From contig OZ024740.1 of the NCBI GenBank assembly GCA_964016885.1, forward strand, positions 199,640,001 through 199,704,000: DNA of 64,000 nucleotides. The letters are read 5' to 3'. The notes beneath the pieces are model-generated. The model was not told the DNA's origin. It saw only the letters and a program-made list of their open reading frames with translations, and searched no databases. Below, one piece after another: positions 32,029 through 33,178 of this stretch. Position 1 is the stretch's first letter. Every line of letters starts with the position of its first letter. This DNA is from Eledone cirrhosa (taxonomy: Eukaryota). A program made the translations under genes and the position numbers.

Positions 32029-32033
<5 letters not shown>

Positions 32034-33174
32034 ATAAATGCTCTGAAATAGCGATATATATGTGAATATAGACATAGAATATTCGAAAATATTCTGTATG
32101 TTTATAATAAACATTTTGAAGACCTAATCGCTATAGAATAGAATACGTCACGTATTACAATTAGATTCTCGATAAAAGCAAGGGAAGTAATCTACGCGTT
32201 TCATTCTTGTTAGAAATCTTCAGGACTACATATCCAGTGCTTTTATCGAGAATGACACAGCTAGAGACTTATAGAATACTTAGCTGTGTACAGGAACTGG
32301 TTTGAAAGAGCGGTTGCCGGTCCGGCAGAAATTAGAAATTGGAATAAATGCTCTGAAATAGCGATATATATGTGAATATAGACATAGAATATTCGAAAAT
32401 ATTCTGTATGTTTATAATAAACATTTTGAAGACCTAATCGCTATAGAATAGAATACGTCACGTATTACAATTAGATTCTCGATAAAAGCAAGGGAAGTAA
32501 TCTACGCGTTTCATTCTTGTTAGAAATCTTCAGGACTACATATCCAGTGCTTTTATCGAGAATGACACAGCTAGAGACTTATAGAATACTTAGCTGTGTA
32601 CAGGAACTGGTTTGAAAGAGCTCTTTCAAACCAGTTCCTGTACACAGCTAAGTATTCTATAAGTCTCTAGCTGTGTCATTCTCGATAAAAGCACTGGATA
32701 TGTAGTCCTGAAGATTTCTAACAAGAATGAAACGCGTAGATTACTTCCCTTGCTTTTATCGAGAACCTAATTGTAATACGTGACGTATTCTATTCTATAG
32801 CGATTAGGTCTTCAAAATGTTTATTATAAACATACAGAATATTTTCGAATATTCTATGTCTATATTCACATATATATCGCTATTTCAGAGCATTTATTCC
32901 AATTTCTAATTTCTGCCGGACCGGCAACCGCTCTTTCAAACCAGTTCCTGTACACAGCTAAGTATTCTATAAGTCTCTAGCTGTGTCATTCTCGATAAAA
33001 GCACTGGATATGTAGTCCTGAAGATTTCTAACAAGAATGAAACGCGTAGATTACTTCCCTTGCTTTTATCGAGAATCTAATTGTAATACGTGACGTATTC
33101 TATTCTATAGCGATTAGGTCTTCAAAATGTTTATTATAAACATACAGAATATTTTCGAATATTCTATGTCTATA

Positions 33175-33178
<4 letters not shown>
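32029..33178. mobile_element. Mirrored tandem dimer of a 310-bp hammerhead monomer, family E
   Basis: Exact 310-bp period (32031/32341), apex GAG|CTC at 32620/32621, palindrome 32063-33178 with one visible mismatch (32766), (TA)n on both sides. Confidence 0.9.
32702..32744 (+). ncRNA. Canonical minimal type I hammerhead (also 33012-33054 plus; 32187-32229 and 32497-32539 minus)
   Basis: GUAGUC-CUGAAGA-UUUCU(AACA)AGAAU-GAAA-CGCG-UA-GAUUAC; palindromic ACGCGU; GUA triplet. Confidence 0.9.

Follow-up and report, generated by a model that had tools for sequence, protein, structure and literature searches.

The window analyzed here, a 64,000-nucleotide stretch of the Eledone cirrhosa genome, contains at 32028–33178 a palindrome whose outer ends pass, on both sides, into a (TA)n microsatellite, identified from the sequence as the left (31964–32027) and right (33179–33210) halves of the putative target. 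Inverted-repeat analysis of the window places the mirror center at 32620|32621, from where the sequence matches for 558 nt each way with a sole mismatch (32475 versus 32766), and a 310-bp period is present on either side of the center. The 310-bp units and the mirror with one mismatch that were described in the earlier note are thus confirmed; of the description of the insert as two units followed by their mirror image, the period and the mirror stand, whereas the arms comprise only 1.92 and 1.80 units and the left one is 35 nt longer. When the unit is numbered as a circle, with position 1 as the first base after the predicted ribozyme cut, the left arm (32028–32621, minus strand; 594 nt) runs from circle position 192 to 165, its outer end being denoted here site A, and the right arm (32620–33178, plus strand; 559 nt) runs from position 192 to site B, at position 130, or 139 if one mismatch is allowed. 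Both arms stop at circle position 192 at the inversion center (32620–32621), with a 2-nt GC overlap, and the left arm alone carries a 35-nt Penelope-type tail (32028–32062, minus strand; circle 131–165; compare the accessible text of PMC11167929 and PMC8557442). At their ends, the arms are circularly permuted units, not LTRs, and, because both outer ends sit within (TA)n, a target-site duplication is unreadable at this locus. Each arm encompasses only one complete cut-to-cut monomer of 310 nt, at 32193–32502 on the minus strand and at 32739–33048 on the plus strand (34% GC, no ORF). The repeated unit has stops in all three sense frames, there is no ORF of at least 130 aa across the palindrome on either strand, and no single ORF at the palindrome combines RT with GIY-YIG, the combination by which an autonomous Penelope-like element (PLE) is recognized. 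An assembly gap of 200 N lies at 38337–38536, about 5 kb off the palindrome.

The palindrome contains four identical matches to the type I hammerhead motif (GTAGTC-CTGAAGA-TTTCTAACAAGAAT-GAAA-CGCG-TA-GATTAC), two on the plus strand (32702–32744, starting at 32702, with the predicted cut after 32738, and 33012–33054, starting at 33012, with the predicted cut after 33048) and two on the minus strand (32497–32539, starting at 32539, predicted cut 32503/32502, and 32187–32229, starting at 32229, predicted cut 32193/32192). The parts of the motif are a 6-bp stem I, CUGAAGA, a 4-bp stem II, GAAA, the palindromic ACGCGU and the cleavage triplet GUA; all hammerhead core residues are kept in 4/4 copies. 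A looser core pattern produced 5 matches in the window, 4 of these in the palindrome, against 0.04 expected from shuffled sequences. Stem II opens with a U.U pair in the palindrome's ribozymes, where the canonical first pair of hammerhead stem II is G-C; other haplotypes of the 310-nt family have a CUGAUGA core and an A-U opening. The Rfam search gave no match at the gathering score for the palindrome ribozyme motif and no hammerhead family among the 30 matches at E ≤ 10, which were miRNA-type families and one viral UTR and were dismissed as chance matches to the palindrome and simple repeats. Because Rfam returned no hammerhead match, it is the motif itself that carries the ribozyme call; at this level, the sequence supports the assignment to the 310-nt unit of a dimer-type hammerhead with the palindromic ACGCGU. 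The four intact ribozymes claimed previously are borne out as motifs, and the plus-strand cuts predicted in the earlier note, after 32738 and 33048, agree with the core starts at 32702 and 33012. A hammerhead-like match at 55121 was rejected as lying inside a helicase-like ORF remnant; the window contains at 51961–55389 (plus strand) broken Rep/helicase-like ORFs, which resemble those of a Helitron.

RNA folding predictions qualify how these ribozymes could be used. The 310-nt monomer is more structured than shuffled sequences (z-score −4.3, monomer at 32739–33048), and its ends are paired in the predicted fold; a ribozyme hairpin with an extended stem I, in which circle positions 250–265 pair with 13–28, is predicted at 32678–32766 on the plus strand, and the single mismatch between the arms (32766, T>C) is located at the outer end of this hairpin. 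A transcript of the whole palindrome folds into one 558-bp duplex (−988 kcal/mol) in which 10/10 listed ribozyme positions pair with the mirror arm. In this model, read-through of the palindrome would form dsRNA masking all four ribozymes. The expectation that a transcript entering from either side meets two usable ribozymes is therefore not supported, and release of a monomer would require initiation within an arm, upstream of its first core; no promoter was identified at the palindrome. In the predicted ensemble of the right-arm transcript, two separate ribozyme hairpins with an open stem III dominate. The double hammerhead formed through ACGCGU, also proposed previously, is reachable as a nested fold at −142.6 kcal/mol, but this is 5.7 kcal/mol above the minimum of −148.3, and its stem III pairing has approximately zero probability in the ensemble.

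A search of the 3.0-Gb genome with one monomer gave 228 matches, of which the listed ones are 99–100% identical and mostly form tandem runs, and pattern searches of the whole genome detected 987 junctions with an exact tail/(TA)n match, together with 16,968 intact hammerhead cores (0 in the reversed-pattern control in both cases). The 987 exact junctions are a lower bound for the insertions of the family, which therefore number at least about a thousand. Judging by sequence, the palindrome represents a single insertion from a young family of non-coding, 310-nt hammerhead repeats, of the non-LTR retrozyme type; the family falls within the limits used for non-LTR retrozyme units (150–450 bp, low GC, dimers to multimers). 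The hammerhead in each 310-bp tandem unit, the GC content, the lack of coding capacity and the co-resident PLEs support the non-LTR retrozyme reading of the earlier note, and a non-inherited difference level of 0.074% across the family is consistent with its view of the insert as young. By contrast, the choice of this locus as the best candidate for an active element does not hold: near-identity is found family-wide, the locus is one of no fewer than 987, its arms, at 594 and 559 nt, reach about half of the sample median arm length (1152 nt), and the haplotype is a minority type (284A, with 284T fixed in 24/39 loci). Because the genome contains this many exact junctions and intact cores, the flagged palindrome is an ordinary family member, not a special copy.

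Two samples of loci were parsed into arms. Set 1 consists of the palindrome window and 36 loci from the BLAST list (37 in all), picked regardless of their ends; set 2 comprises 40 loci, namely those that come first on contig 1 among the 987 junctions, picked by the A end with the internal sequence ignored. In set 1, 29 of the 37 loci are two-armed, with the arms pointing outward, and 8 are not; in set 2, 35/40 are two-armed. Among the other sampled loci, some have one arm only, some extend beyond the retrieved sequence or are interrupted by a gap, and in some an arm is too short for parsing. The two outer ends are distinct: site A maps to circle position ~165 (164–172) and site B to ~127–139, about 26–38 nt away. 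All 24 two-armed loci of set 1 with both ends resolved combine one A with one B end (24/24; p ~6e-8 under random choice of site per arm), and the second arm ends at B in 34/34 resolved loci of set 2, so that the split is strict in 58/58 resolved loci of the two sets together; no tail-to-tail pair occurs among the listed pairs of either set. Because site B, an AU patch, matches the (TA)n target, its exact position is blurred. Outer ends lie within TA-rich DNA in 49/53 and 64/69 arms (113/122), a count in which one end per set 2 locus had been selected for TA. The inner ends behave differently, being uniform around the circle and uncorrelated between the arms (34 loci, KS p = 0.92); only 0/58 and 2/70 fall within 7 nt of the cut site (2/128 versus about 3 expected). 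An overlap of 1–3 nt is the commonest class of center in the family, either arm may be the longer one, and arrays reach at least 24 units, with arms of 19–24 units among them.

Perfect palindromes can stem from fold-back reads, and an assembly or chimeric-read artefact had to be considered for the flagged locus. It is extremely improbable given that 64/77 sampled loci are two-armed, with differing, non-mirror centers and with arms that end at biologically defined sites, and that some ten palindromic inserts belonging to further families occur in the window. For the flagged locus only, the mirror might alternatively have arisen by fold-back self-priming of a single cDNA, of the kind argued for Penelope palindromes in the accessible portion of PMC3846280; such an origin would account for the stop of both arms at position 192 with no spacer, and another locus, in a related ~316-nt family (L137), is exactly symmetric as well. 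We nevertheless regard fold-back priming as very improbable, as the inner ends are uncorrelated across the family and either arm may be the longer one, the right arm of the palindrome ends at site B like the others, and the arms differ at 32475/32766. Exact symmetry has a chance of ~1/310 per locus among at least 987 loci, and a first reading tends to flag striking cases; the perfect symmetry of the flagged palindrome is probably due to chance.

A third possibility is that the arrays are a satellite amplified as DNA, through unequal crossing-over or on rolling circles of DNA, and that the ribozyme is a passenger; local amplification after pLTR insertion is preferred in the accessible text of a 2026 preprint, and block duplications are indeed seen in the long arrays. 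As the origin of the arrays, it is a highly improbable explanation, in view of the dispersed insertions, the fixed, RNA-defined outer ends, the obligatory A/B asymmetry and the sharing of a haplotype across inverted arms. DNA-level amplification probably explains later changes inside long arrays and is disfavored as the source of the arrays themselves.

The two-site arrangement extends beyond the 310-nt family. The related ~316-nt family shows a two-site split as well, with ends at positions 98 and 72 in most listed pairs. Across the region that includes both sites, five related repeats have three hairpins in common, and 5/27 predicted pairs change double-sidedly, a conservation of pairing that, coming from five related sequences only, is suggestive. 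The structured region of the palindrome unit (circle 59–165, at 32797–32903 on the plus strand), which is conserved in four related repeats through compensatory changes, includes both start sites and, in our model, would be a protein-recognition element. One member of the ~316-nt family is present in the window as a two-armed insertion at 48946–49560, with a one-sided tail and 74% identity over the tail region; its core reads CTTGATAAG, not CTGANGA, and its ribozyme may be degenerate or variant.

The insertion signature of the 310-nt family, as read from sequence, matches the endonuclease-bearing PLE type. According to the available text of PMC11167929, PMC8557442 and PMC3846280, these elements share with it the head-to-head inverted, 5'-truncated copy, the 30–40-nt tail at one end, the AT-rich or (TA)n targets and the two internal RT starts downstream of the hammerhead. 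The tail and the (TA)n targeting had been overlooked in the earlier reading. The 310-nt family differs from the PLEs, so far as those texts describe them, in lacking an RT/GIY-YIG ORF and in having arms of 19–24 units, in contrast to the partial tandems of PLEs; in addition, the PLE tail is described as optional or often at one end, whereas the split in the 310-nt family is strict in all 58 resolved loci.

The nature of the template can be gleaned from the mutation record. Variants were compared in 39 loci of set 2 (L162 was dropped because of a mis-parsed center, and the "47+T" entry of L165 is an alignment artefact); the variant counts of set 1 were excluded, given that BLAST picking is biased to the query haplotype. 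In 35/39 loci, there are variants fixed in every covering unit, which define 21–22 haplotypes, and the two arms agree at 69/73 informative sites, with 3 of the 4 misses coming from one alignment artefact. Of the real variants, twelve occur at a single locus each and are nevertheless fixed there, 11 of them in both arms, in up to 22/22 units (for example, a 2-nt deletion in 22/22 units, two substitutions in 17/17 and one substitution in 14/14). For a mutation that arose in one unit of a source array to fill both arms of a daughter, the template must have been a single monomer. Non-inherited differences amount to 86 in 115,948 nt (0.074%), and 30 of the 36 testable ones are absent from the other arm.

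These data bear on the main rival of a circular template, namely, the same two-start, Penelope-type insertion operating on an uncleaved linear multimer, so that the ribozyme is unneeded. This template is favored for an autonomous PLE in the accessible text of PMC11167929, where mutating the ribozyme leaves insertion normal and unprocessed RNA predominates in vitro; the RT crosses the cut site in the 310-nt family, as uncut RNA would also permit, and a single-unit variant is common to both arms in two loci (L186 and L052). Under this scheme, however, a mutation of one unit is expected in 1 of n units, whereas the 12 private variants are fixed, arguing for a frequent one-monomer bottleneck; furthermore, most testable single-unit differences are not shared between the arms, and inherited variants avoid the catalytic core. 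The linear multimer accounts for the ends but not for the repeated fixation of private variants, and we consider it unlikely. A cleaved linear monomer, on which the RT would jump from the 5' end to the 3' end while the two are held together by stem I, would equally provide the monomer bottleneck, and the cut-to-cut fold pairs the ends as required. Template jumps usually leave scars, but no non-inherited indel was found in 369 crossings of the cut site and there is no excess of stops at that site, which makes the linear monomer a very unlikely template. The statement in the earlier note that tandem units fit reverse transcription around a circular template gains support from the family-wide ends, haplotypes and junction crossings.

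The distribution of variants further speaks to the role of the ribozyme. Among the inherited variants, 10/25 fall inside the 43-nt ribozyme (p = 0.001), and all of them spare the 16 positions of the core and stem III (p = 0.01, tested within the ribozyme); of the non-inherited variants, 3/65 are found on those 16 positions. In the ribozyme, inherited variants are confined to tolerant places, namely the variable position 7 of the core, with three states, loop 2, the stem II opening (U.U to A-U) and stem I, where, in our reading, the variants preserve pairing. On these sequence grounds, it can be argued that the ribozyme is under selection. Some loci depart from the simple pattern: 204C>T is common to the first turn of both arms only in L186, the haplotype switches inside one arm of L178, and L052, like L186, has a single-unit variant common to both arms. 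In seven loci (L037, L050, L051, L054, L055, L169 and L189), single-unit variants recur 2–10 units apart with no strict periodicity, possibly through post-insertion block duplications, RT re-priming or assembly effects. Strictly multimeric circles were rejected as the source of the repeated single-unit variants because periodicity fades in most arrays. A template switch or a multimeric template is possible for L178 and L186, and these loci, L052 and several long arrays indicate that in some cases a template is multimeric or is switched, or that the DNA is rearranged later.

We consider it likely that the family is a non-LTR retrozyme that moves as a circular RNA copied by a PLE protein, with two RTs per circle. 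Observed directly are the outward-pointing arms, the asymmetric outer ends, the random inner ends, the single haplotype and the copying through the cut site; dimer cleavage, ligation into a circle, RT priming on two strands and joining through microhomology form a joint inference that we rate as similarly probable. The proposed pathway would begin with transcription of a tandem array, in which two ribozymes pair via ACGCGU and cut out the 310-nt monomer, the ends of which, held by the long stem I, would then be ligated. In the resulting circle, the lone ribozyme would have almost no stem III, and the circle would be stable. A dimeric RT/GIY-YIG protein of the Penelope type would bind the structured region 59–165 and nick both strands of a (TA)n tract, and each nicked 3' end would prime one RT on the same circle, one at A (~165) and the other at B (~127–139), where the AU patch can pair with the (TA)n target. 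Each RT would complete a random number of turns before ending at a random point, and the two cDNA ends would join through 0–3 nt of microhomology, producing the outward-pointing pair with a one-sided tail. At the palindrome, both RTs would happen to have stopped at circle position 192, hence the perfect mirror. With more reserve, we lean toward a stronger version, in which both Penelope subunits read one ribozyme circle together, in rolling fashion, from obligatory sites of their own 26–38 nt apart, and in which circle haplotypes compete and evolve under selection on the ribozyme.

In the accessible text of PMC11167929, the two strands of AT-rich DNA are each nicked and extended in vitro by a Penelope protein for which a dimer is predicted; its RT starts at two internal sites that bound a 30–40-nt tail. 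Some findings speak against the circular-template model. In the same text, ribozyme cleavage is dispensable for insertion, the main substrate in vitro is unprocessed RNA and the RT start sites are alike on the top and bottom strands; in the 2026 preprint (10.64898/2026.07.22.740005, as far as its text is accessible), 8/9 Xenopus dimers were uncleaved and 1/9 was active. Further points against the model are the U.U opening of stem II, the unfavored double hammerhead, the silence of Rfam and the mixed arrays.

Among known systems, the animal non-LTR retrozymes come closest in composition, with, per the available text of PMC7229834 and 10.64898/2026.07.22.740005, the same ~300-nt, low-GC, non-coding tandem unit with one type I hammerhead, a likewise short and palindromic stem III, copy numbers in the thousands and co-resident PLEs. 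The accessible parts of these papers mention no head-to-head two-armed insertions, fixed starts, (TA)n targeting or cross-arm haplotype fixation; conversely, they report cleavage and circles, whereas the 310-nt family is known here from sequence. Retrozyme circles, found in coral, mussel and axolotl, have been proposed as templates for PLE RTs (PMC7229834, accessible text), and Li, Clavereau & Pollet 2026 link retrozymes to PLE pLTRs by homology, leaving the mechanism open in the text available (10.64898/2026.07.22.740005). The dimeric hammerheads of axolotl and newt have the same 1–2-bp stem III and palindromic loop, and dimer-type ribozymes are thought to cut multimers while sparing monomeric circles, in the available texts of PMC7229834 and PMC4209133 for the former and of PMC4209133 for the latter. 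In contrast to the axolotl and newt type, the predicted ribozyme of the palindrome haplotype has the CUGAAGA core and the U.U opening of stem II. In LINE-1 twin priming, both target strands prime RT on one RNA, yielding an inverted 5' part and a microhomology join. The 310-nt family differs in its fixed, neighboring internal starts, the many passes of the unit and the absence of a poly(A) tail.

A literature search, with supplements and subscription papers outside its scope, found no report of the strict A/B split, the cross-arm haplotype fixation or the two-armed rolling-circle pattern, and 0 occurrences of "twin priming" in the searched text. The origin of tandem, inverted, one-tailed PLE insertions is named as an open problem in the accessible text of PMC8557442, and retrozyme circles as the transposition template with PLEs as the machinery have so far been a proposal (PMC7229834 and the 2026 preprint, available text). 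With at least about a thousand near-unmutated insertions, in which ends, centers and haplotypes can be counted, both questions become testable, and in vitro assays gain a 310-nt substrate on which two start sites are mapped. The likely value of the family is that it records Penelope-type, two-start rolling-circle insertion in countable form. If the model is correct, the arrays would directly record in the genome a retrozyme life cycle that has yet to be demonstrated in an animal, and a single asymmetric reaction of two RTs would explain why Penelope-type insertions have a strictly one-sided tail, arms in inverted orientation and tandem arrays.

Autonomous PLEs are co-resident in the genome, with GIY-YIG/RT families whose open frames reach ~890–940 aa, along with coding remnants. 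Among 80 PLE loci (30 and 50) out of more than 10,000 candidates, no homology of the 310-nt unit to a pLTR was detected, and no PLE coding sequence near the arrays was seen abutting an inner end. Several partner candidates were tried and rejected: the C-terminal GIY-YIG family of window positions 12318–12869 (30 loci with no link to the unit); 50 GIY-YIG loci including long ORFs, in which the DNA matches at L198 and L235 turned out to be separately inserted relatives; and the family of the insert at 34131, which has a similar stem II (30 loci with no PLE coding match). The window sequence at 12318–12869 (minus strand, extending to about 13519) is a PLE remnant with a C-terminal GIY-YIG, from a family with 58,194 first-look candidates, some with open frames of 850–890 aa. 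One locus elsewhere (L227, G000:C1:145868500-145876500) encodes CX4CxxC before the GIY-YIG in a 938-aa open frame and has a minimal pLTR hammerhead; it is Neptune-like by the description in the accessible text of PMC8557442. Another Neptune-like pair, L230/L233, has near-identical 3' ends and a pLTR hammerhead with the CUGAAGA core and the U.U opening. Neither L227 nor L230/L233 was linked to the 310-nt unit.

A different hammerhead repeat (L073:2482 and L093), which runs into (TA)n, combines the U.U opening with an AACA-type loop and a palindromic ACTAGT stem III. In the window, further palindromic inserts are located at 4541–4901, 5540–5839, 18065–18182, 25450–25999, 26411–26651, 28152–29160, 34131–34246, 35909–36298, 41150–41308 and 61693–62053; the ones that were read lie in or beside TA-rich DNA, some have hammerhead-like cores (34131 and 35909), and a 520-bp period is present at 28064–28841.

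The 310-nt unit was also encountered under other names in public data. Of the words of the unit (window 32621–33178 and 32739–33048), 0.6–0.9 are present in contigs of 20 public runs with 18 organism labels from 17 studies, its presence under foreign labels being judged from 4 of the 24 listed runs. Raw reads of one run under another label (X23) gave 0 matches to the unit in 1.9 Gb. The explanation that fits best is carry-over of a very high-copy repeat (about 1e-4); related species or a free circle are alternatives, as is horizontal transfer, which is less likely. In two runs (X4 and X6), the unit appears as a single closed 340-nt contig with a depth of 26–34, compared to a summed depth of ~4e5 in X1.
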